A stretch of DNA of 64,000 bases from a virus. Lineage: Duplodnaviria; Caudoviricetes. Made by a program: the position numbers and the translations under genes. The notes beneath the pieces were generated by a model. It ran no database searches and had not been told where the DNA came from. It was given only the letters and a program-made list of their open reading frames with translations. The stretch spans positions 21,071 to 85,070 of the IMG/VR virus record IMGVR_UViG_2739367553_000005; one strand, given 5' to 3'. Positions 20,598 to 62,325 of the stretch are shown piece by piece. Positions within the stretch are counted from its first letter, which is position 1, and every line of letters starts with the position of its first letter.

Positions 20598-21131
20598 TTA
20601 TTTAAGCCTTTTTTTCTTGCAATACATATTATCTACGAACAGTTGAATAAACACTGCAACTACCATAGAAAAAAAGACAGGTATACCTATATGAATTAAC
20701 AATACTGCAATTAAAGGTATTGCTGCTTGTGTACAATAAGCAATTGATCCACACAATTTAACAGAGCCTTGGACAAACCATTTCAATATTATTATTAATA
20801 CTATGAAGTGAATTATAATCGTAATTGGCTCATATATATCTACCTGCTTTTCTCCGCTGATCAAAAACCAAAACGAAATTGTTAATATAGATTTAACAAG
20901 ATCTTTTAGTGTATCAAAAAGAAAATCTTTTATTTTTGCATTATTATCTTTAAATTTTAATACCCCAGTAGCCCAAAATAATGCCGCTACAATTTGGTAA
21001 CTACCAAGTAAAGAACTATTTTGCTCTAATTTATATTTACCAAGTAAGGTTAGTGAAATAAAAAAAATAATATCAATCAAAATATCAGTCAAAGCTACAA
21101 CTTTCTTTTTCATTCGTAATACTCCATTCAT
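20598..21131 (-). CDS. Multi-pass membrane protein (moron)
   Basis: About six hydrophobic segments; AT-rich. Confidence 0.7.
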   Translation of the reverse strand: MNGVLRMKKKVVALTDILIDIIFFISLTLLGKYKLEQNSSLLGSYQIVAALFWATGVLKFKDNNAKIKDFLFDTLKDLVKSILTISFWFLISGEKQVDIYEPITIIIHFIVLIIILKWFVQGSVKLCGSIAYCTQAAIPLIAVLLIHIGIPVFFSMVVAVFIQLFVDNMYCKKKRLK

Positions 21132-21188: not shown

Positions 21189-21259
21189 TTGGGCTGCCCG
21201 GATTCGAACCAGGAAATGCAGGAATCAAATCCTGTGCTTTACCATTTGGCAATAGCCCA
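21189..21259 (-). tRNA. tRNA-Gln(TTG)-like gene, degenerate (6-nt anticodon loop)
   Basis: TGGGCTATTGCCAAATGGTAAAGCACAGGATTTGATTCCTGCATTTCCTGGTTCGAATCCGGGCAGCCCA: TGGTAA D-loop, GGTTCGAATCC T-arm, CAGGA/TCCTG anticodon stem. Confidence 0.8.
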
Positions 21260-26667: not shown

Positions 26668-27075
26668 TTATAATAAAAATTTATCGGAAATATCATCATA
26701 TGGATATATTATTGTCACGTCGCCTTTTTCATCAATTAAAAGTATATGTAATTTTATTAACTGCCGGAAATAATCAGGAATTAATTTACATTGTCTTTTA
26801 TATTTAATGTGCTTAGGCACTGCTATCGAATAAATTGACAAATCGTTTTTCATGCTTTTAATTAGCTGTCCCAGGCAGGTATTGAAATCCAATCCAACTG
26901 AACTTGTAATTCCTTTAGCTTCGACTATCCAGCACTCATCATTCTTTCTTGCAATTAAATCAACTTGGTTTAAAGTATCAATTTCATAGCCTAAGTCATT
27001 AAAATATTTTTCAATAGAAAACTGTATAAAAGCTTCGTTTGGATATGAATTATCTTTTTTAAAATATTTATTCAT
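26668..27075 (-). CDS. Stand-alone PD-(D/E)XK restriction-endonuclease-like protein
   Basis: NEA...VDLIARK...WIVEAKG...GQL motif. Confidence 0.75.
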   Translation of the reverse strand: MNKYFKKDNSYPNEAFIQFSIEKYFNDLGYEIDTLNQVDLIARKNDECWIVEAKGITSSVGLDFNTCLGQLIKSMKNDLSIYSIAVPKHIKYKRQCKLIPDYFRQLIKLHILLIDEKGDVTIIYPYDDISDKFLL

Positions 27076-27156: not shown

Positions 27157-27414
27157 TTATATTCGTTCTATCCCGTATTCATAAATCGTATCACTTGGCA
27201 AATCAATTTCATCGGTCCAAAATACGCAAGTCCGACTTTCGTCAACCTGGACCTGCTGGAACAATCCATAAATATTTTTCAGATCTGCAAACTGTGCTAT
27301 GTTGCCGATGTCTTCTTTAACGTCATATAACACTTCTTTGCCATCGTCAAAAATCACTTGTAATAAATAATCATCTAATGGCTTTAATTCTTTTATTCTT
27401 GGTATCATTCCCAC
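27157..27414 (-). CDS. DUF2442 family protein (putative antitoxin)
   Basis: IKELKPLDDYLLQVIFDDG...YDVK...F.QV.VD....V.W..EIDLPSDTIYE. Confidence 0.8.
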   Translation of the reverse strand: MGMIPRIKELKPLDDYLLQVIFDDGKEVLYDVKEDIGNIAQFADLKNIYGLFQQVQVDESRTCVFWTDEIDLPSDTIYEYGIERI

Positions 27415-27439
27415 ACCTCCAGACGGGCGAAAAAGCCGC

Positions 27440-27691
27440 TTATAATGGCGGTAATTTCTTTAGATTCTGGCTATCCCACATATCTAATAATTCATTGTGA
27501 TTCTGGGACATCCACTCTTTAACAAGTTCCTGTGCTCTCCGGGGTAAATCTCCTTCTGTCATTTCCATAGTCCGCAAATCAAAGATTCCGATATGCTCAC
27601 CATACAAAGCATGTAAATGACTTGGTTCATGTTCCTTTGGTTTGAAGAACATTTTAATTACTATCCCATAGAACCTTGCTATCTCTGGCAC
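27440..27691 (-). CDS. DUF4160 family protein (putative toxin)
   Basis: GTG start, MPEIARFYGIVIKMFF..EHEPSHLHALYGE...W...N.EL...W. Confidence 0.85.
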   Translation of the reverse strand: MPEIARFYGIVIKMFFKPKEHEPSHLHALYGEHIGIFDLRTMEMTEGDLPRRAQELVKEWMSQNHNELLDMWDSQNLKKLPPL

Positions 27692-27736
27692 CTTATCAAC
27701 TCCTTTTATCATTACTTCTTGTATGGTTATATTATA

Positions 27737-28188
27737 TTCTATTATCATGTAATAGTCAATTCTATTATTGCGTAATTTTTAATTTTCTTTATATTCCATA
27801 ATCTGTCCTGGTTGACACCTGAGAAGTTTACACAAATTACATATGACTTCACAAGTAACATTCTCATTTTTTACCAACTTATAAACAGTAGCCCGATGAA
27901 TCCCATTATCTATAAGCCACTGCTTTTTTAGGCCTTTTTTATCCATCAAAATCCAAAACTTTTCAAAGTCAATAATTCCATTCTCTCCATAGTTTGCCAC
28001 TGTCTCACCGCTTTCTATTATCGTGTATCATTCTATATACAATAATATTCTAAAATCGTGTAATTGTCAACATTCTATTGTCATGTACTTTTCCAACAAG
28101 CCCAACATTTTTATTCTATTTTTGTGTAATATGTAGATATTCTATTTTCGTGTAATTTTCTATTGAAATTAATTCTATTATCGTGTAA
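27737..28188 (+). promoter_or_regulatory. Array of eight 16-bp direct repeats, consensus TTCTATTATCGTGTAA (putative operators)
   Basis: Copies at 27737, 27760, 28013, 28048, 28073, 28114, 28140 and 28173; the last sits between TTGAAA (28163) and TATAAT (28189). Confidence 0.75.
27779..28000 (-). CDS. Cro/C1-type HTH transcriptional regulator
   Basis: GIHRATVYKLVKNENVTCEVICNLCKLLRCQPGQIMEY. Confidence 0.85.
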   Translation of the reverse strand: MANYGENGIIDFEKFWILMDKKGLKKQWLIDNGIHRATVYKLVKNENVTCEVICNLCKLLRCQPGQIMEYKEN

Positions 28189-28242
28189 TATAATGATATA
28201 GCAAGCAACACAAAACAATTCAATCGAAAGGTGGTAATCACT

Positions 28243-28527
28243 ATGACAAAGACGGCTAGGAAAGAAGTAGTTAAGGCAATCGCAAAAGTATTCGAAGTTT
28301 CACCAAATAAGGTAACTCTATTAGAATCCAGCGGAAACATTGAGAGTTTCAAGAATAACGGTATGTTTGATGAGTCCGAAGAGAATTTTTCTATAAACAT
28401 CAGATACAACAATTTCTTATCAAAAGGCTATAGTGTATTGGTCAGTTGTGTTAAATCAGGAAGTAACAAAGATTACATTGCACATAGTCATACGGTTATC
28501 GAAAGTGAAGCATATGACACCATTTAA
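28243..28527 (+). CDS. Hypothetical protein, first gene of the plus-strand small-gene operon
   Basis: AAAGGTGG RBS; 94 aa. Confidence 0.7.
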   Translation: MTKTARKEVVKAIAKVFEVSPNKVTLLESSGNIESFKNNGMFDESEENFSINIRYNNFLSKGYSVLVSCVKSGSNKDYIAHSHTVIESEAYDTI

Positions 28528-28530
28528 TAA

Positions 28531-28585
28531 ATCCCCTGAAGAGTCTTTGAAGATTAAGACGAAACCGCCTGCCGGCGGTCGGGAT
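28531..28585 (+). ncRNA. Type I hammerhead ribozyme
   Basis: ATCCC-CTGAAGA-GTCTT(tgaagatt)AAGAC-GAAA-CCGCC(tgcc)GGCGG-TC-GGGAT: complete core and three perfect stems; cleavage after C28580. Confidence 0.93.
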
Positions 28586-28620
28586 ACACGCACATTACAA
28601 CCAAATAAGGAGGTTTTACA

Positions 28621-28827
28621 ATGGCAAATTTAGCACACTTATTCCACGTAGGACAGAAATTAAAAATCAGAAATGATGACTTTGATTCACTTCATAAATT
28701 CAATGATGGGATTGTAAAGGAAGCGCACGAACATCATATCATAGTAACAGAAACAAAAACAAATACAGACGGTTGGTATGAAGAAGGTCTTAACATTGAT
28801 ATGCTTTACCCTGAATACAATTTTTAG
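28621..28827 (+). CDS. Hypothetical small protein
   Basis: AAGGAGG RBS 3' of the hammerhead. Confidence 0.7.
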   Translation: MANLAHLFHVGQKLKIRNDDFDSLHKFNDGIVKEAHEHHIIVTETKTNTDGWYEEGLNIDMLYPEYNF

Positions 28828-28857
28828 TCTTAACTTATAAAATGAAAGGAGCTCCAC

Positions 28858-29034
28858 ATGAAAACAGAACACAGGGTAGACAATTGGAATCAAAATAAAA
28901 TCTGGATCTGCAAAATCTCAAAATGCAATCACTACTACATAGGCCAGCAAGTGGGTTGCCTGAACTTACGACCGGTAAGAGTTTCAAAATCTTATTACAA
29001 GTCAATCATCTTTAATCCCAAATTTGCATATTAG
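28858..29034 (+). CDS. Hypothetical 58-aa protein (not in ORF track)
   Basis: Manual translation MKTEHRVDNWNQNKIWICKISKCNHYYIGQQ...; AAAGGAG RBS. Confidence 0.6.
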   Translation: MKTEHRVDNWNQNKIWICKISKCNHYYIGQQVGCLNLRPVRVSKSYYKSIIFNPKFAY

Positions 29035-29048
29035 GCGACGTTGTCGCC

Positions 29049-29100
29049 TCTCTAATGCGGGTATCCGGTCTCAACCCCGGAGGAAGTCGCAGAGCGGAGA
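29049..29100 (+). ncRNA. Twister ribozyme (P1 type, minimal, variant pseudoknot)
   Basis: TCTC-TAA-TGCG-GG-TAT-CCGG-TCTCAACC-CCGG...CGCA-GAGCG-GAGA: P1, P2 and P4 stems pair; GG/CC replaces the usual GC/GC pseudoknot. Confidence 0.75.
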
Positions 29101-29136
29101 AATCACAGATGAGACCACATGAAAGGCGGTACTTAT

Positions 29137-29547
29137 ATGAAAAAGACTACTAATAAAATTCAAGAGAATTACATGTTATCTAAAGCGCACCTCGAAACCC
29201 TGGAGGACAAAGAAAACAAACTGGAGCACCAGTATATCATTGACAATGGAATCATTAATCCGGACGGCTCCATACCTGAACACATCTATTGCATAGAAGA
29301 CGAGGAAACATTTAACAAGGCAAATGAAGAACAGGCAGCAACTGCTGAAGCTTCAGGTTTATGGCAGGAAATATTAGCAGCCAGGGAGATACTTTCCATA
29401 GCAGAATCAAAACTTATCGAGTATGGATTATCTATAGTTCCGGACAAGCAACGGGAAATCTTGAAAAAGGCAGTTAAAGAAAATTATACCACACGTTTGA
29501 AGGTCATTGACATGGTTCTGAAGCTTGATGTTTCTACAGTAAAATGA
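29137..29547 (+). CDS. Hypothetical protein
   Basis: AAAGGCGG RBS; 136 aa. Confidence 0.7.
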   Translation: MKKTTNKIQENYMLSKAHLETLEDKENKLEHQYIIDNGIINPDGSIPEHIYCIEDEETFNKANEEQAATAEASGLWQEILAAREILSIAESKLIEYGLSIVPDKQREILKKAVKENYTTRLKVIDMVLKLDVSTVK

Positions 29548-29560
29548 CTGAATGAAAGCA

Positions 29561-29591
29561 CCCACCCCTGAGGTCACGAGGGTAGAAAGGA
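29561..29591 (+). repeat. 31-bp leader repeat fused to an RBS, copy 1
   Basis: cccacccctgaggtcacgagggtagaaagga. Confidence 0.8.
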
Positions 29592-29598
29592 AGATAAG

Positions 29599-29808
29599 TT
29601 GAAGGAATACAGAGTGGATTTTATAAACCAGGAAAAAGGAAAAAGAAATCACAGGGATTATGCTACTTTAAAAAATGCGGCAAAGTTTGCAAATTCTCTA
29701 GGATGTGATAATTATGCAATTAAGAAATATAGCTATAAAACATCCTGTTTTGAATATATGGATGAAGAGGAAGTAAGAGATGTTATGAAAATTGTTGATC
29801 AGGGATAA
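29599..29808 (+). CDS. Hypothetical small protein
   Basis: TTG start after the repeat-borne RBS. Confidence 0.55.
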   Translation: MKEYRVDFINQEKGKRNHRDYATLKNAAKFANSLGCDNYAIKKYSYKTSCFEYMDEEEVRDVMKIVDQG

Positions 29809-29818
29809 AAAACAAAAA

Positions 29819-29849
29819 CCCACCCCAGAGGTTACGAGGGCAGAAAGGA
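29819..29849 (+). repeat. 31-bp leader repeat fused to an RBS, copy 2
   Basis: cccaccccagaggttacgagggcagaaagga; 3 mismatches to copy 1. Confidence 0.8.
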
Positions 29850-29854
29850 TTATC

Positions 29855-30040
29855 ATGAAAAGAATCGTACCGACTATAGGCAAGATTTACACCAATCGTG
29901 GCGGCGGTGATTACCTATGCAAAAATGTACTTATTAATGGATAAGCAATAATGGTTCGAGTCAGCGACGGTTGGCGGCTTAGGGCTCACGGCATCTGCCA
30001 GTACGAAGATGGAACCATCGAATGGGATTATTCCGCATAA
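29855..30040 (+). pseudogene. Small phage gene with an in-frame TAA at codon 30
   Basis: MKRIVPTIGKIYTNRGGGDYLCKNVLING*AIMVRVSDGWRLRAHGICQYEDGTIEWDYSA. Confidence 0.6.
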
Positions 30041-30062
30041 CATTGAGGCGGCTACTGCCGCC

Positions 30063-30122
30063 CCTTTAATGCAGCCGGAAAAGCTCCGCAGGTCACAAGC
30101 CCTGGTAAATGCAGAGTGGAGG
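30063..30122 (+). ncRNA. Twister ribozyme (P1 type, canonical)
   Basis: CCTT-TAA-TGCA-GC-CGGA(aaagc)TCCG-CAGG-TCACAAGC-CCTG-gtaaa-TGCA-GAGTG-GAGG matches the clostridial twister pattern UAAUGCAGC...GGUYACAAGCCC...GCAGAGU. Confidence 0.88.
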
Positions 30123-30133
30123 AAAACAATAAT

Positions 30134-30856
30134 TTAAGTCATATGATTTATTTGATAATTTTTAAGTTCATGCATTTTTATTAAATCCATTATTTCTTCA
30201 TTCATTGAGGAAAACTTTTCATCATCCATAGTAGAACATAACATTATTTTAAATCCATTTTCAAATCTTTTTAATCCATATATGTCGTCTCCATAAGATT
30301 CTAATATTGTAAATAACCTTGAATCAAATCTTCTTCTAATATTACGAGGTATAGGTTCAAAGGTAACCTCTAATTCCGAATAATTTATCCTTTCTCTGAA
30401 CTTTGACCCCTTTTCTATTGATTCGAAAGAATCATTTACCATACTTTTCATTTCTTCTTTTGCCTCTTCCGTCACATTGGGCAGCTCATCTATTCTTCTT
30501 TCCAACGCTTGGCTTAGATCGCATCGCATCTTTTCCATAGTCTGATTTATTATATCTGTTTCACCTTTAACCCTGTCAAGCTTTTCATTTATTTTAACAT
30601 AAATTTTATTAGTCTCAGAATTATTTACTTGTCCCCACCAGATCGCTATAAAAGCAAGCGCAATAGACACTCCACTGGCGATAAATGAAATTATATTTAC
30701 AATATCAGTATTATCACTTAACCTAATTGCACAAATAAAAACAATTATACCTATCAAAATTCCTATTAACCAAAAATAATCTTGCTTTCTCCAATTTGAA
30801 CTATTATTCTCCATCTGGTGCCCCCTAAAACATTTCATTTTATTCTTTAAAAGCAC
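30134..30856 (-). CDS. Two-TM membrane protein with coiled coil (moron)
   Basis: Two N-terminal hydrophobic helices; likely ATG at 30814; AT-rich. Confidence 0.7.
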   Translation of the reverse strand: MLLKNKMKCFRGHQMENNSSNWRKQDYFWLIGILIGIIVFICAIRLSDNTDIVNIISFIASGVSIALAFIAIWWGQVNNSETNKIYVKINEKLDRVKGETDIINQTMEKMRCDLSQALERRIDELPNVTEEAKEEMKSMVNDSFESIEKGSKFRERINYSELEVTFEPIPRNIRRRFDSRLFTILESYGDDIYGLKRFENGFKIMLCSTMDDEKFSSMNEEIMDLIKMHELKNYQINHMT

Positions 30857-31683: not shown

Positions 31684-32439
31684 CTATTCATAATTCTTAA
31701 TAATCAATTCTTTATATCTCCTACTCTTATCCTTATTCACCAGATTATCCATTCTGTCAACTTCTATGATGGTATATCCCTCAAACAAATCCCTGATCTG
31801 CTGGCAGTCATTATAGGACAATACAAATTTCCCTTTAATATTGCCCAGGCATCTTTGTAATCTTTCATGGTCCTCTGGGTTGAACCGATCCGGGTAATAC
31901 TTCTCCGCTTCGTAATAGGGCGGATCCAGATAAAATAATGCATCCGGCCTGTCATATGTTTTTATCAGCCGTTCAAAGTCCTGGTTCTCTATTACCACTC
32001 GATTTAACCGTCCTGACACCTCTTTCAGATAATCAACAGCTTTCTGCATGTCTCTTGGACAAACTCTAAAAGATTTACAGTCTGTCCCAAAACTCTCCCT
32101 GATCAGGCAGAAGAATCGGGCGGCCCGTTGTATGTCAGTCATTCCTCTGGTATTCCTGCTTAACTCGTCAAAGAACTGCTCTCTGGACATAAGCAGCCAT
32201 TCCAGTTCCTTCTGCAGTGTTTCCGGGTGATATTTAACCACCCGGTATAAATTAATCAATTCTCCATTCACATCGTTAAAGACTTCCAATGGTGCATGTT
32301 TATCCTTTGAAAATAAGACCCAACCGGCTCCGCCGAATACCTCAATATACCGGCTGTATGAACCCAGATCCGGGAACTGCTCAAGTATTTGCTTCCGTAA
32401 TAACTTCTTTCCACCAATCCAACTAATAAAACTATTCAT
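31684..32439 (-). CDS. DNA adenine methyltransferase (Dam/D12 class)
   Basis: WIGGK, YIEVFGGAGWV, NDVNGELINLY, YLDPPYY. Confidence 0.92.
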   Translation of the reverse strand: MNSFISWIGGKKLLRKQILEQFPDLGSYSRYIEVFGGAGWVLFSKDKHAPLEVFNDVNGELINLYRVVKYHPETLQKELEWLLMSREQFFDELSRNTRGMTDIQRAARFFCLIRESFGTDCKSFRVCPRDMQKAVDYLKEVSGRLNRVVIENQDFERLIKTYDRPDALFYLDPPYYEAEKYYPDRFNPEDHERLQRCLGNIKGKFVLSYNDCQQIRDLFEGYTIIEVDRMDNLVNKDKSRRYKELIIKNYE

Positions 32440-32479: not shown

Positions 32480-33631
32480 TTAAGAATCTAATAGATGAAA
32501 TTTACATGCTATTTCCTGTATTACATTTACAGTTACTCCATTACCCGCCTGCTTATAGAGCTGATTATCGCTATTGACCATAGCTGCCTGCTCAAAATAT
32601 TTATCTTTCCAGCCCTGCAAACGAAAGCATTCTCGTGGGGTAAGCTTGCGAATTTTAGGAACCTTATCCCTCACGCAAACAACTGCTTGACTACATGAAG
32701 TTGTTAATGTATGAACTTTCCCCTTGCCAACCCGCCCCCGCTTAGTAGTACTATTGGGATAATCAAGTTTAATGCTATCTCCTACCTCAGCGCGAGTGTA
32801 ACCTTTTTCATTTGCATCTCGGATTAAAAAACCTTCTCTATGCTTCTTGATTTTTAATGAAAGATTATTTTGGCTGCCTGTTCCTCTGATAGGTAATACT
32901 TTTCTTCCGGTTCTTCTTCTAAGAAATCCAACAATAAACACTCTTTCTCTACTTTGCGGGATTCCGAAATCTTTGGTATTGAGAACTTGCCATTCTGCAT
33001 CATAGCCGACTTCGTCCAATTCAATGAGAAGTTTGGTAAAATCGAGCCCTCGATTAACACTAAGTAAGTTTTTAACGTTCTCAATAAATAGGATTGAGGG
33101 TTTATTTTCTTCCGGCAGGTCTCTAATAAGTCCTGTAACTGTGAAAAACAAACTTGAACGTTTCCCAGCAAATCCAAGTCTTTTCCCGGCAATGGAAATG
33201 TCTTGGCACGGAAATCCGAAACACCACACATCTGCTCTGGGCAATTCTCTGGCTGCAATATTTCTGATATCATTTGCGTACCATTCCCCATTTCTGTACT
33301 TCTCCTTTAAAATCTCTATTTGCCTTTCTCTAAATGGAAGCTGAAAAAGGTATTGATTTTGCTCTTCGGATATTAAATGCATAGATGTATAACTCATTAC
33401 TGCATATTTATCCCATTCACAAAAGCCAACACATCTATGACCAGCAAGTTCCATTCCTTTTCTAAATCCACCAATGCCAGAAAAAAAATCCAAAAATGTA
33501 AGACTCATTTTGTCAAGAAGCTGCTGCAGCATTAGTCCGGATGGCTTCGCTCCTTTTAAATTGATATCAAAATTGAGCATAGCACATAGTATTACTGCAA
33601 TTCTATGTAAAATTGTTTCTTCTTTACACAT
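32480..33631 (-). CDS. C5-cytosine DNA methyltransferase (motif I begins near 33508)
   Basis: FSGIGG, GFPCQDIS, ENVKNLL, PQSRERVFIVG, RKLTPRECFRLQG, YKQAGNGV. Confidence 0.92.
   Translation of the reverse strand: MCKEETILHRIAVILCAMLNFDINLKGAKPSGLMLQQLLDKMSLTFLDFFSGIGGFRKGMELAGHRCVGFCEWDKYAVMSYTSMHLISEEQNQYLFQLPFRERQIEILKEKYRNGEWYANDIRNIAARELPRADVWCFGFPCQDISIAGKRLGFAGKRSSLFFTVTGLIRDLPEENKPSILFIENVKNLLSVNRGLDFTKLLIELDEVGYDAEWQVLNTKDFGIPQSRERVFIVGFLRRRTGRKVLPIRGTGSQNNLSLKIKKHREGFLIRDANEKGYTRAEVGDSIKLDYPNSTTKRGRVGKGKVHTLTTSCSQAVVCVRDKVPKIRKLTPRECFRLQGWKDKYFEQAAMVNSDNQLYKQAGNGVTVNVIQEIACKFHLLDS
32854..33291 (-). CDS. Overlapping alternative-frame ORF inside the C5-MTase, EcoHK31I-beta-like
   Basis: Same strand, shifted frame; FSLNWTKSAMMQNGKF...ECLLLDFLEEEPEEKYYLSEEQ. 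Confidence 0.5.
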   Translation of the reverse strand: MGNGTQMISEILQPENCPEQMCGVSDFRAKTFPLPGKDLDLLGNVQVCFSQLQDLLETCRKKINPQSYLLRTLKTYLVLIEGSILPNFSLNWTKSAMMQNGKFSIPKISESRKVEKECLLLDFLEEEPEEKYYLSEEQAAKIIFH

Positions 33632-33694: not shown

Positions 33695-34945
33695 ATGAAT
33701 AAAATCACTCAAATCACGAAACGCGATATAATAGATATTATAAATAATGGTATAGTAGTAGATACAGACAATATTATAAATTCAGAAATTTATGAAAATA
33801 TTTACGAAGATAAAAATTATAAAATTTGCTATCATGGCCGCTTAGATGAGATTGATTTTCTTAAGAGAATATATGATCTACAAAATATCCCATCAATGGA
33901 TTCAAGATTTTCAGATGCTGAAGGCGATATATGGCAACATACGGTTAATAATTATGATTGGGACGATGATTGGATATTTTCAGATAGTAGATTTGAATTA
34001 TTATATGGCGATGATGAAGTATTCTTAAAATTTATATGTGAAATATTCCATCCCATAGTAAGAAACGAAAGTCAACCTTGGAAAAAAATATTAAAAATAA
34101 TTAATGATCTTCTAAGAATAGATGGGTATGAACTATATGAACATAGCCATATATCTGGTAGGGCAATTTATTTTTGGAGAGAGACAGGTGAAAATTTTGT
34201 TGAGATACCGGATAATACACATTCTAAATTCTATGAACTAAAATTAATTGGAGAAGGTTCTTATGCAAAGGTTTTTAAATACAGAAATGATACTTATCAA
34301 AAGATGTTTGTTATAAAAAGAGCAAAATCAGACTTAGATGATAAAGAATTGGAAAGATTTAAGCGAGAATATGAGCAGATGAAATCTCTGAATTCACCAT
34401 ACATAGTTGAAGTCTATGGATATGACGATAGTAAGCATGAATATTCAATGGAATACATGGATTTTACATTAGATAAATATATTTCAACCAATAATGGTAA
34501 CCTTACTTTTAAACAACGAAAAGGAATTTCTATGCAGATATTAAGAGCATTTAAATATATACATTCTAAAGAATTACTTCATCGTGATATTTGTCCCAAA
34601 AACATTTTAGTAAAAAAATATGATGATGTTGATGTATTTAAAGTATCTGATTTTGGTTTAGTTAAGATTCCAAATAGTAACCTAACATCACTAAATACAG
34701 AATATAAAGGATATTTTAATGATCCTGAATTAAGATTAGAAGGCTTTGCCTCATATGGAATAGTACATGAAATATACGCCTTAACTAGAGTAATATATTT
34801 TGTAATGACAGGTAAAACCAATACAGATAAAATTCTCAATGAATCCCTTAAAAGTTTTGTATTAAAAGGATTGAATCCAGATAAAAGATTACGATTTCAA
34901 AACATCGAACAACTTACTAAGGCATTTTCAGATATAACAGAATAA
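33695..34945 (+). CDS. AbiJ-N-terminal-domain / Ser-Thr protein kinase fusion
   Basis: N-terminal GRLDEIDFLKRIYDL...DSRF.DAEGDIWQH..NN.DW; kinase motifs IGEGSYAKV, VIKR, HRDICPKNILV, DFG. Confidence 0.85.
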   Translation: MNKITQITKRDIIDIINNGIVVDTDNIINSEIYENIYEDKNYKICYHGRLDEIDFLKRIYDLQNIPSMDSRFSDAEGDIWQHTVNNYDWDDDWIFSDSRFELLYGDDEVFLKFICEIFHPIVRNESQPWKKILKIINDLLRIDGYELYEHSHISGRAIYFWRETGENFVEIPDNTHSKFYELKLIGEGSYAKVFKYRNDTYQKMFVIKRAKSDLDDKELERFKREYEQMKSLNSPYIVEVYGYDDSKHEYSMEYMDFTLDKYISTNNGNLTFKQRKGISMQILRAFKYIHSKELLHRDICPKNILVKKYDDVDVFKVSDFGLVKIPNSNLTSLNTEYKGYFNDPELRLEGFASYGIVHEIYALTRVIYFVMTGKTNTDKILNESLKSFVLKGLNPDKRLRFQNIEQLTKAFSDITE

Positions 34946-35020: not shown

Positions 35021-35404
35021 CTATATTTTAAAATGATTAACGCTACTAAGTGATTTATTATGAATATTAAAAATCTGCCTTACACTATACCCCATTTTGT
35101 CTGCAATAACGTCCCATGTATAACCTCTTATGTACCGATATTTCATCAATCGCTTTTCCTGTTCATCTTCCATATTCTCAATTTTATCATATAGTTCCAG
35201 GCAAATTTTCACCTTCTGGTATCGGTAGCAAATAACTTTCTGTTTCAGATCATTAAGAGCATCTACATATTTATCGTCGTAACCATAAGAAGCCATCTCT
35301 TTCTGTATTATCTGGATATCTTCATCCGCATCAGAAATAGCAGCATTGAATGCAACCAGATTTTTTAATTGATCCATTGTCTTATTTTTCATTAGGCTAT
35401 ACAC
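35021..35404 (-). CDS. DUF1492/ArpU-like transcriptional regulator
   Basis: KYRYIRGYTWDVIADKMGYSVRQIFNIHNKSL. Confidence 0.75.
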   Translation of the reverse strand: MYSLMKNKTMDQLKNLVAFNAAISDADEDIQIIQKEMASYGYDDKYVDALNDLKQKVICYRYQKVKICLELYDKIENMEDEQEKRLMKYRYIRGYTWDVIADKMGYSVRQIFNIHNKSLSSVNHFKI

Positions 35405-36438
35405 CTCTCTCTTATGTTTCTTAATGTGTCAGGAGTTGATTGAGCATAATAAGCTGCCGTTACCGAAGGGCTTCCATGACCCATAATCTCCTGAATTGTT
35501 CCAATGTCCACACCTTTGTTTTTGAGTGTCATTCCGAGCGTCTTCCGGATCTTATGTGGGTATACCCTACTCTTTACCATGGCGCGCTTTCCGATAGTTT
35601 TAAGAATGCTCCTAATTCCGGAAGTAGTCATTTGATCATGCGGCGCCTTACACTGAGGAAACATAAAAGGGCTATCGTCATTCCGGGAGTCCATATATTT
35701 GCGGTAATAATATCTTGCATCATCATCTAAAAATATCGGCCGGTATTTGTCGCTCTTCTCACCCAAGATCATGATATCACCGGTATTCCAATCTATCTGG
35801 TCAAGAGTTATCTCTACCAGCTCCCCTACTCTGGCACCGGTGCTGCGAAGCACTTCTATTAAAGCACGTTCCCGGTAACTCTTACAGGCGTCTTTCATTT
35901 TTGTCATCTCTTCAGGCTTAAAATAATCAATCGGCTTTTTGATAGCTTTGAGTGGATCCGTTGCCTCGACCGGATTTTCTCCAATCAATTTTTCCTTTCG
36001 CATCCAAGTGAAGAAAGCAGAGAGGAAACGTCTTTCATTATTTACGGTTATGGCCTGATTCTTCTTGCCACTGGCATTTATATTCCGCTTCTCATACCAG
36101 GACAGGTAATAGCTGATATCGGATTCCTCTATCCTATCCAGCGGCTTGTCAATCAAGGTAATCAGGCGTTTAACTGAACTAAGATATGCTTGCTTAGTAT
36201 TATCTTTTATTTTTTTCTTCACTATAAAAAGCTGAACGATGTACTTATTCTTCTGATCCGTGTCATTCTGATATTCTACCGGAAGAGTGGTTATTTCTTC
36301 CATGTTGACATTGACAAATTCCTTTATGATTACCTGATGAAGAATGTCTAAAACATCTTTAGTCACATGCTCTGCCATGGCAACAATAATGTTGTTAATT
36401 ACCTGCGCTTTTATGGTTTGTCCATTCATAATATGCAA
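35392..36438 (-). CDS. Second tyrosine recombinase (XerD-like)
   Basis: STGARVGEL, VYPHKIRKT, IQEIMGHGSPSVTAAYY (R-H-R-H-Y catalytic set). Confidence 0.92.
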   Translation of the reverse strand: MHIMNGQTIKAQVINNIIVAMAEHVTKDVLDILHQVIIKEFVNVNMEEITTLPVEYQNDTDQKNKYIVQLFIVKKKIKDNTKQAYLSSVKRLITLIDKPLDRIEESDISYYLSWYEKRNINASGKKNQAITVNNERRFLSAFFTWMRKEKLIGENPVEATDPLKAIKKPIDYFKPEEMTKMKDACKSYRERALIEVLRSTGARVGELVEITLDQIDWNTGDIMILGEKSDKYRPIFLDDDARYYYRKYMDSRNDDSPFMFPQCKAPHDQMTTSGIRSILKTIGKRAMVKSRVYPHKIRKTLGMTLKNKGVDIGTIQEIMGHGSPSVTAAYYAQSTPDTLRNIRERCIA

Positions 36439-60896: not shown

Positions 60897-61062
60897 TTAA
60901 ATTACAAAACCGCCCGGTGCTACCAACACCGAACGGCTTCACATAGATTATACCGACAGTGCCGATACATACTATTCTTCAAATACATTGTATCACCCTG
61001 GCACTAAACTGTAAACCGGTATAGTGTTATTTTTATACTCTTTTTCAGGAAAGGATGATTTT

Positions 61063-62325
61063 ATGTCGTTAGTAAAATGTCCAGAATGCCAAGGACAAAT
61101 AAGCACACAGGCAACTACATGCCCTCACTGTGGGTACCCAATTCTCCCAGTTGAAAATAATAAAAGCAAACGAGGCAGACCAAAGAAATCAGATCAACAA
61201 TCATTAATGCGTTTACCCAACGGCTATGGTACCATAAAAGCATTACCAGGTAATCGCCGTCGACCCTTTGCAGCAATGGTCAATCCTAAACTTACACTTA
61301 ATGAAGATACTGGGAAAAGCTATTATACATATGATTTTCTAGGATCTTTTCCGGAAAAGATAGATGCTTATAAAGCAATTTTAAGCTATCAGGAGAATCC
61401 ATATGATTTGAAAAATGACCTGACTATCAAAGAATTATACGATGTATGGTTACCCAAATACATAGATGATAATAACTTAGATGATAATAGGCGTAAAGCC
61501 TATGATGCAATTTTCAAATATTGCGAGCCAGTTTATGATATTAAAGTTACAAATTTCATGCCAGCTATGATTGAAGATCTTATAAAGAATGCGTACAAAA
61601 CTGGAGATAGGGGAAATGAAGCAGGTAAAAGAATAGCTGCTACTTCCACAGTAAAAAGCAACATGAAGATATTATTTAATCTTCTTTTTGATTACGCTGT
61701 CTTTCTCCGGATAGTATCCGATAACTACGCACGTACCTTTACAATAAACACCAGTAAGGAATCTAAGCAAACGTCAAGAGTAGGACGGCCATACACCAAT
61801 GAGGAGTTAGCAATTCTATGGGATAATATTGGAGATATTTTTATTGACATGACAATAGTTCAATGCTACTCTGGTTGGCGTCCGGGTGAAGTTATAACTC
61901 TCTCTGTAAATAATATCGATCTGAAAAACAGAACATATACTGGTGGAATTAAAACTGAAAATGGAATTAATAGAATAGTCCCGATCCACCCAAAAGTTTT
62001 ACCTATAATACAGAAGTACTATAATGAAGCCAATGATGTAGGACGTCCTATGCTGTTTGGACGTACAAAACAATTTCATGGTTCTTATAGATATATTGAA
62101 AATTCCTTTAGACATTCGTTGTTGAAAAAAGAAGAAGAACTCGGAATCTCGGGACATGTATTACACGATGGCAGACATACCTTCTCAACAATGGCAAAGA
62201 AATATGGAATTAATGAATTTGCAAGGAAAAAAATTATGGGTCATGCCATTAAAGATTTAACTGATAGGGTTTATACTCACATGGATATTGAATGGTTCCG
62301 AAATGAAATTGAGAAGATTTTATAG
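61063..62325 (+). CDS. int: Prophage tyrosine integrase with N-terminal Zn ribbon
   Basis: CPEC...CPHC; YSGWRPGE, HDGRHTF, IMGH, TDRVYTH. Confidence 0.92.
   Translation: MSLVKCPECQGQISTQATTCPHCGYPILPVENNKSKRGRPKKSDQQSLMRLPNGYGTIKALPGNRRRPFAAMVNPKLTLNEDTGKSYYTYDFLGSFPEKIDAYKAILSYQENPYDLKNDLTIKELYDVWLPKYIDDNNLDDNRRKAYDAIFKYCEPVYDIKVTNFMPAMIEDLIKNAYKTGDRGNEAGKRIAATSTVKSNMKILFNLLFDYAVFLRIVSDNYARTFTINTSKESKQTSRVGRPYTNEELAILWDNIGDIFIDMTIVQCYSGWRPGEVITLSVNNIDLKNRTYTGGIKTENGINRIVPIHPKVLPIIQKYYNEANDVGRPMLFGRTKQFHGSYRYIENSFRHSLLKKEEELGISGHVLHDGRHTFSTMAKKYGINEFARKKIMGHAIKDLTDRVYTHMDIEWFRNEIEKIL

Follow-up and report, generated by a model that had tools for sequence, protein, structure and literature searches.

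Why should a phage operon carry several self-cleaving RNAs between its genes? What hammerhead, twister and related ribozymes do for bacteria and phages has yet to be settled (PMC6765202), and the question is raised in compact form by a 64,000-nucleotide (nt) stretch of DNA, hereafter the window, taken from the Caudoviricetes record IMGVR_UViG_2739367553_000005 of IMG/VR (positions 21,071 to 85,070 of that record). At positions 28243–30122 of the window, to which all unlabelled coordinates below refer, a first-pass annotation had reported an operon of six small plus-strand genes with one hammerhead and two twister ribozymes within 1.6 kb. Here, we analysed this locus and its relatives computationally and found a cis-acting RNA module at five gene boundaries of the operon, a ribozyme in three cases and a 31-nt element that we call motif X in two. 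The best explanation of the ribozymes, which we hold to be slightly on the probable side, would be the co-transcriptional cutting of the transcript into autonomous cassette mRNAs.

Identification of the ribozymes

The region 28100–30300 was scanned against Rfam using cmscan with permissive filters, and the whole 64-kb window was scanned separately at the gathering score. Only a tRNA reaches that score in the whole-window scan, which shows no ribozyme because all three score below their gathering thresholds. Despite these sub-threshold scores, the hammerhead and the two type-P1 twisters are confirmed as real at the sequence level, where local E-values, a strict descriptor and compensatory changes agree. 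The reported cluster is thus borne out: it spans 1592 nt from the start of the hammerhead to the end of the last twister (28531–30122), the motifs follow the stops of genes 1, 3 and 6 by 4, 15 and 23 nt, and the first two lie upstream of the next ribosome-binding sites (RBS), at 28606 and 29122.

The first motif is a type I hammerhead (28531–28585, plus strand; predicted cut after C28580), supported by Rfam match, fold, descriptor and covariation. Its bit scores are low (19.2, E 0.3, against a gathering score of 34 for the type I model RF00163; 29.2, E 0.03, against 56.3 for the RAGATH-1-HH model RF03152) because the model is short and the loops are long. A strict type I descriptor, requiring CUGANGA, GAA, the A15.1-U16.1 pair, H17 and three stems, matches once in the window and twice in the 5.6-Mb genome, compared with 0.005 matches per shuffled window. 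As in type I hammerheads (RF00163), the invariant core is complete, being fully consensus (CUGAAGA at 28536–28542, GAA at 28561–28563, the A28564-U28579 pair and C28580), and it is framed by three stems of 5–6 bp (I, 28531–28535/28581–28585; II, 28543–28547/28556–28560; III, 28564–28569/28574–28579), which the minimum-free-energy fold reproduces, with stem I open. Position N7 is A, U or C in three intact relatives and A, U, C or G over six aligned copies, as expected. An alignment of five sequences (the hammerhead of this locus, copies from two genomes of the genus and from Agathobaculum phage AB434P2, and a copy that precedes a gene 4 homologue on an IMG/VR contig) keeps 16 of 16 pairs, with six changed on both sides, two per stem; this level of covariation was reached by none of 500 shuffles, and slid controls give 0–1. 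No bulge or loop contact could be assigned in stem I, and the retention of loop II (UGAARAUU) among relatives hints at a tertiary contact.

The last motif, twister 3 (30063–30122, plus strand; type P1, with P3), is identified by Rfam and covariation. It scores 62.4 bits against a gathering score of 67.2 (E 3.7e-13 in the region and 2.3e-13 genome-wide) and aligns over the full length of RF03160, with P1, P2, P4, the U/A cut site by P1 and the pseudoknots T1 and T2 all present. The middle pair of T1 is A-U, as in most copies of the genus, in place of the consensus C-G. An alignment of eight twisters from the genus, covering 21 pairs, has 97% of its cells paired, with eight pairs changed on both sides and the two pseudoknots preserved; further genus copies have U-A in T1 and A-U in T2. 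Twisters are cut between the U next to P1 and a conserved A (PMC5408937), and the predicted cut is U30067/A30068. The genome-wide Rfam scan gave two twister-P1 matches in the entire 5.6 Mb, both in this operon, and such matches are present in 11 of the 49 genomes of the genus.

Between these two lies twister 2 (29049–29100, plus strand; predicted cut U29053/A29054), a divergent type-P1 copy without P3, a stem that is optional and absent in about 20% of twisters (PMC5408937). It scores 34.4 bits (E 4e-5; gathering score 67.2) and forms P1, P2 and P4 as UCUC/GAGA, UGCG/CGCA and CCGG/CCGG. Its T2 is kept by a G-C flip, GG pairing with CC where the consensus pairs GC with GC, and its T1 reads C-G, U.C, C-G; a high-scoring twister of a related genome, G018 (G labels denote genomes and L labels individual loci), likewise has a mismatched middle T1 pair, A.C. 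The junction before the 3' strand of P2 is AGGAAGU here and AUAAA or GAAAA in genus relatives. When searched against IMG/VR, the loop pattern CCGGTCTCAACCCCGG of this copy hit 29 viral contigs and recovered no twister. Compared with the type-P1 twister (RF03160), as far as PMC5408937 summarises it from Roth et al. 2014, both copies have P1, P2, P4, the cut site and the L1/L4 nucleotides in common with it; they differ in scoring below threshold and at the middle of T1, which is A-U in the genus and U.C in twister 2, and twister 2 also differs in its flipped T2.

Directly 5' of each twister stands a GC hairpin, GGCGAC-GUU-GUCGCC before twister 2 (29034–29048, overlapping the stop of gene 3) and the P0-like GGCGGC-UACU-GCCGCC before twister 3 (30047–30062), both on the plus strand. 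The two differ by a compensatory change from G-C to A-U, and the succession of hairpin, twister, RBS and start codon recurs in unrelated contexts in G011, G016 and G511. The twister has an optional stem P0 (PMC5408937), to which the hairpins probably correspond, and after cleavage each would remain as a hairpin at the 3' end of the fragment upstream. In G016:C11 (L334:2273–4053) and G011:C34 (L335:2131–3770), type-P1 twisters also occur as pairs on one strand, 1.6–1.7 kb apart, in which each twister follows a GC hairpin and precedes an RBS, and the pairs enclose blocks of 3–4 genes.

The predicted cuts fit the hammerhead consensus, with cleavage after C17, and the twister consensus at the sites given by the first-pass annotation (28580/28581, 29053/29054 and 30067/30068), from which its two units, 28581–29053 (473 nt) and 29054–30067 (1014 nt), would follow.

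Exchange of cassettes among relatives

The block 29054–30067, comprising the twister body, gene 4, motif X, gene 5, motif X, gene 6 and a hairpin, is absent from G018, G031 and G024, which have a single twister in its place; gene 3 and its twister are conserved. Upstream of its differently composed operon, G024 has the same promoter region (84% identity over 253 nt) followed by a different set of cassettes. The modules preceding a given gene are exchanged as well: gene 4 (89% nt identity) lies behind a twister here and behind a hammerhead in G016, and gene 3 is preceded by a plain RBS here and in G018 and by motif X in G024 and G016. The hammerhead itself is an isolated island of 62–87 nt with 90–95% identity amid unrelated flanking genes in G018 and G014.

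The same variety extends to the wider family of gene 4, for which 45 viral loci were inspected, 20 of them being scanned for ribozyme families. Among the scanned loci, relatives of gene 4 have a type-P5 twister on both sides (L267), a type II hammerhead before them (L298) or a twister-sister after them (L266); elsewhere among the 45, L263 has an X-like motif and L294/295 a type I hammerhead in front of the gene, and still others have a promoter with a palindromic operator there. The type I hammerhead found before a gene 4 relative has stems I and II fully compensated. Taken together, these sequence comparisons indicate that relatives exchange gene cassettes at ribozymes.

The longer operon of G018 includes two more GC-rich intergenic stretches (L132:13780–13860 and L132:13270–13400, minus strand), both with a CGG-UYAAG-CCG hairpin inside a GGCGG/CCGCC-type stem. 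They are possibly another boundary motif, and neither gave an Rfam match at E<=5.

Proposed processing of the transcript

A promoter scan gave one sigma-70-like site for the operon (28163–28191), and no plus-strand terminator-like site was found up to 30400; it is therefore plausible that the six genes form a single transcription unit. The operon had been described as one early transcript, and the promoter and terminator scans make the single unit plausible, whereas the word early derives only from the layout of repressor and operators.

We propose that the ribozymes would cut this transcript during its synthesis at the three predicted sites. The first message would contain gene 1 and retain the folded hammerhead at its 3' end; the second would contain genes 2 and 3 and end in the GC hairpin that precedes twister 2; the third would contain genes 4–6, with a compact twister fold at its 5' end and the second GC hairpin at its 3' end, and the last cut would free it from read-through RNA running antisense into the convergent genes. 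Each cassette would be an mRNA unit of its own, with leader, RBS and 3' end independent of the neighbouring genes, and decay and translation would be uncoupled between cassettes. Such autonomy would fit arrays that are shuffled between related elements, and would make unrelated ribozyme classes, or motif X, interchangeable before one gene. The proposal is consistent with ribozymes that lie on the coding strand between a stop and the next RBS, the hammerhead and twister 3 having intact cores, and with a single promoter-like site and no internal plus-strand terminator. It is also in line with the recurrence of the hairpin, twister, RBS and start layout in the genus and with the in vitro cleavage published for comparable arrays (PMC3088659). 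Cutting into units had also been put forward by the first-pass annotation; it is a reasonable idea, with coordinates derived from consensus, and it is not new, since Perreault et al. 2011 (PMC3088659) proposed the processing of long phage transcripts into gene-length mRNAs and raised circular products, and a 2019 review repeats the processing idea as an untested hypothesis (PMC6765202).

Several observations weigh against this proposal. The upstream RNA makes no difference to the predicted probability that the RBS is unpaired (with vs without it, 0.55 vs 0.53 for gene 2 and 0.48 vs 0.47 for gene 4), so that insulation is not visible in silico. Core-mutated hammerheads persist in relatives (G10.1 to A in G016, G5 to U in G026), and most gene 4 relatives in phages lack an adjacent ribozyme; on this comparison the ribozymes are therefore dispensable for the genes. 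Twister 2, with its T1 mismatch and odd junction, may be weak as a ribozyme. The locus is moreover decaying, with a nonsense codon in gene 6 and an operon truncated after twister 3. Finally, a 5'-OH end can attract RNase J1 in Firmicutes, as for the product of the glmS ribozyme, and cleavage could thus destabilise, not protect, the fragment downstream of the hammerhead.

The persistence of mutated hammerheads in G016 and G026 would suit a reading in which the ribozymes and motif X are mainly recombination linkers or hitch-hikers, RNA cleavage being incidental or mildly useful. Stretches of homology between relatives are bounded by the ribozymes, unrelated genes lie on either side of the hammerhead island, and the block between the twisters is present or absent as a unit, all as expected of linkers. 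However, compensatory changes maintain all stems and both twister pseudoknots, which argues for selection on the RNA fold and not on DNA identity alone. The occurrence of structurally unrelated classes at the same junction speaks for a shared activity at the RNA level, and patches of 55–60 nt are short for efficient homologous exchange. We consider a role mainly as linkers rather unlikely.

Cleavage could also lower or time the expression of the downstream cassette through decay from the 5'-OH end, in the manner of glmS and not as insulation. The 5'-OH product of the Bacillus glmS ribozyme decays in an RNase J1-dependent manner, and the type I hammerhead would leave an unstructured 5'-OH leader on genes 2 and 3. 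Once glmS has been cleaved, cellular RNases degrade the RNA (PMC6765202). The twister cut, on the other hand, would leave the downstream fragment headed by an almost complete, compactly folded ribozyme, and crystallography suggests that the twister 5' end is buried in the fold (PMC8782182), so that an exonuclease would be hindered. The ribozymes also have no ligand-sensing domain, and constitutive self-cleavage alone gives no regulation. Negative control of this kind is, in our view, unlikely.

It had further been suggested that the fragments might be circularised by an RtcB-type ligase, here as circles of 473 and 1014 nt. In favour of this, an RtcB is encoded by the host (379 bits), the 1014-nt block has a twister on either side, pairs of twisters on one strand are seen repeatedly in the genus, and in the engineered 'Tornado' system twister-flanked RNA is reportedly circularised by RtcB. 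Yet the 1014-nt fragment has no predicted end-to-end pairing, the 473-nt fragment has only a 5-bp end pairing, for which G018 lacks the complementary sequence, and no more than 2–3 pairs would form in a chimeric P1 built from both twisters. In relatives, the second twister leads into more genes and closes no unit. Perreault et al. sought circular or spliced products of hammerhead arrays and detected none (PMC3088659). The ligase part of the suggestion thus stands, but with no conserved end pairing nothing argues for ligation, and we regard circular products as very unlikely.

The broken gene 6, the truncation near 30132 and the state of twister 2 (34.4 bits, T1 mismatch, no close IMG/VR relatives by loop sequence) would fit some or all of the motifs being inactive relics in a decaying operon, but we give this little credence, as the cores and stems of the hammerhead and twister 3 are flawless and near-identical to copies in the intact operons of G018, G031 and G014.

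Motif X at the other junctions

The cutting of the transcript into cassettes would involve three of the five boundaries; the two ribozyme-free junctions, before genes 5 and 6, are filled by motif X. Copy 1 (29561–29591, CCCACC-CCUGA-GGU-C-ACGA-GGG-UAGAAAGGA) includes the RBS of gene 5 and copy 2 (29819–29849) that of gene 6, both on the plus strand. The motif is 31 nt long, with the consensus CCCRCC-CCNGA-GGU-N-ACGA-GGG-YAGAAAGGA followed by 5–8 nt and a start codon, and further copies lie at L007:1477–1507 and L004:1802–1833. Its 21-nt core is found exactly in at least 117 IMG/VR contigs and at least 119 species genomes, those listed being mostly Oscillospiraceae and other Clostridia, in a near-constant layout of stop codon, mostly 6–14 nt (up to about 50), X, 5–8 nt and a small, diverse gene. 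A sample of 400 other genomes of the same class yielded no copy. The Rfam scan of 28100–30300 matched no family to motif X, and a full-text search by sequence, which did not cover the RAGATH supplementary motifs, found no paper on it.

Motif X shares phage operons with twister-sister and RAGATH-5 motifs. In L088:1–3332 (IMG/VR 3300029119_000136), a phage array of small genes, the junctions carry in order two twister-sisters, two RAGATH-5 motifs and two copies of X. A tie between X and type-P1 twisters was rejected, as 0 of 50 X-bearing viral contigs have a twister-P1.

A hairpin model leaves 85% of the positions paired, against 21–55% with the partner slid, and 45 sequences gave no covariation beyond shuffles. 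Support for the fold comes only from rare variants in which the inner hairpin is replaced or missing or the motif is reduced to a minimal GCCC-ACGA-GGGC form, and conservation is mainly at the level of sequence. We tentatively propose that motif X is an undescribed, very widespread intercistronic RNA element of Clostridia phages, which might stand in for the ribozymes at cassette boundaries; we see this as a possibility and not as the expected outcome. It could combine a decay barrier with a ribosome-loading cassette, which is our favoured guess at low confidence, or be the target of a processing enzyme. If X were indeed equivalent to a ribozyme, this could explain why twister, hammerhead, X or nothing is found before one gene, and the comparison of X with ribozymes would provide a direct handle on the purpose of bacterial self-cleaving ribozymes.

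Genes, control region and surroundings

The six small plus-strand genes with good RBS that had been described are all present, although gene 6 is not intact. Gene 1 (28243–28527, 94 amino acids, aa; RBS GAAAGGTGG) has no Pfam, PHROG or NCBIfam match, and gene 2 (28621–28827, 68 aa) belongs to no known family in Pfam and PHROG scans. Gene 3 (28858–29034, 58 aa) is conserved in G018, G031 and G024, at 86–91% identity on the nt level, with a partial match in G016. Gene 5 (29599–29808, 69 aa) starts with TTG and has a marginal PHROG match; with this exception, the six proteins matched no Pfam, PHROG, NCBIfam or PADLOC family. Gene 6 (29855–30040) is broken by an in-frame TAA at 29942–29944, as revealed by an uninterrupted phage homologue (L038:3705–3977) that shares 54% identity across the stop.

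Gene 4 (29137–29547, 136 aa) represents a widespread helical family, recognised by profile search and structure model. We counted 201 relatives at E<=1e-3 (more than 200 clusters), without a Pfam entry; in viral contigs a single-sequence search gave no matches and a profile search found relatives. The model is all-helical with a pLDDT (predicted local distance difference test) of 92.5; Foldseek returned nothing at E<=0.001 and VIA-align only generic helical matches with Z <7, so that no PDB match was informative. Relatives of gene 4 are often the first gene behind a strong promoter with a palindromic operator (ATACTAACGTTAGTAT-like), as in L258, L260, L269, L270, L274 and L290–L292.

Upstream, a divergent gene on the minus strand (27779–28000, 73 aa) encodes a Cro/CI-type helix-turn-helix (HTH) regulator (Pfam HTH_26, E 5e-12; PHROG transcriptional repressor). 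Between it and the operon, a repeat search revealed an operator-like array of TTCTATTNTCGTGTAA-type repeats (28005–28199, families D1–D3), and a leftward promoter-like site lies at 28070–28042. Together, the HTH gene, the repeat array and the operon look like a self-contained genetic switch. Farther upstream are a DUF4160/DUF2442 gene pair (27157–27748, minus strand), a 135-aa open reading frame of no family (26668–27075) and, among minus-strand phage-like genes, a tRNA gene (21189–21259, minus strand; 41.5 bits).

At its other end, the operon stops at a breakpoint (30123–30136), similarity to relatives ending near 30132, about 10 nt past twister 3. In G018, G031 and G024 the twister leads into an RBS and more genes; at the present locus, twister 3 is followed instead by a convergent gene (30134–30856, minus strand), whose 3' end comes first. 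The position of twister 3 at the operon end is therefore, by comparison with these relatives, a rearrangement outcome and not a designed terminator. Downstream on the minus strand follow two membrane proteins, Dam-like and Dcm-like methyltransferases (31684–32439 and 32480–33631) and a tyrosine integrase (35392–36438), and a Stk2/mad6/PD-T4-6-like Ser/Thr kinase is encoded on the plus strand (33695–34945; PADLOC, E 6e-38). The kinase, methyltransferases and integrase beside the operon form a defence or anti-defence islet in a prophage region. The wider window is prophage-like, with a DnaB-like helicase, an SMC-like ATPase, a tail-like protein, phage replication genes and a second tyrosine integrase (61024–62325). 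The locus is best read as an accessory operon under repressor control, carried by a prophage-like element of a Clostridia genome.

Comparison with known systems

The locus leaves the overall picture of these ribozymes unchanged, but offers a compact and tractable case, with one promoter and its own repressor, and three ribozymes of two classes. Its natural swaps, in which a module is replaced by another class, by motif X or by nothing, are ready-made constructs for asking whether cleavage insulates, stabilises or destabilises cassette mRNAs, and motif X, being widespread and outside Rfam, merits a study of its own. Beyond the first-pass annotation, our comparisons point to the hairpins, the shuffling, the swapped modules, the stop in gene 6, the truncation and motif X as new.

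For motif X, the nearest likeness is STAB-SD, which Agaisse and Lereclus reportedly described in 1996 as a 5' mRNA stabiliser of Bacillus thuringiensis cry3A. Motif X likewise carries a perfect Shine-Dalgarno-like GGAGGU, without a properly spaced start codon, upstream of the true RBS, and by analogy could keep a 30S subunit bound and so bar 5'-3' decay. Unlike STAB-SD, it is a fixed cassette of 31 nt, intercistronic and found in phages, in which a small hairpin accompanies a conserved ACGA. For the ribozymes, a parallel is RiboJ, said to have been introduced by Lou et al. in 2012 as a synthetic ribozyme insulator: as there, a self-cleaving ribozyme before an RBS would strip the upstream RNA and make expression independent of context. 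RiboJ is engineered, however, and the in-silico accessibility test of the present operon showed no such effect.

The closest known systems are the prophage arrays of Perreault et al. 2011 in Clostridium scindens, Agrobacterium tumefaciens and Azorhizobium caulinodans, where clustered hammerheads border one gene or a short run of genes, and which also combine several coding-strand ribozymes, small variable genes and an integrase. The operon described here, with three same-strand ribozymes in 1.6 kb in an integrase-bearing prophage context, is a clustered-ribozyme prophage operon of the same kind, and the role proposed for it, processing into gene-length mRNAs, is identical. For the arrays of C. 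scindens and A. tumefaciens, hammerhead cleavage was shown in vitro (PMC3088659), whereas the present case is described from its sequence and differs from them in mixing ribozyme classes, in the GC hairpins 5' of its twisters and in the motif X that occupies two of its junctions.

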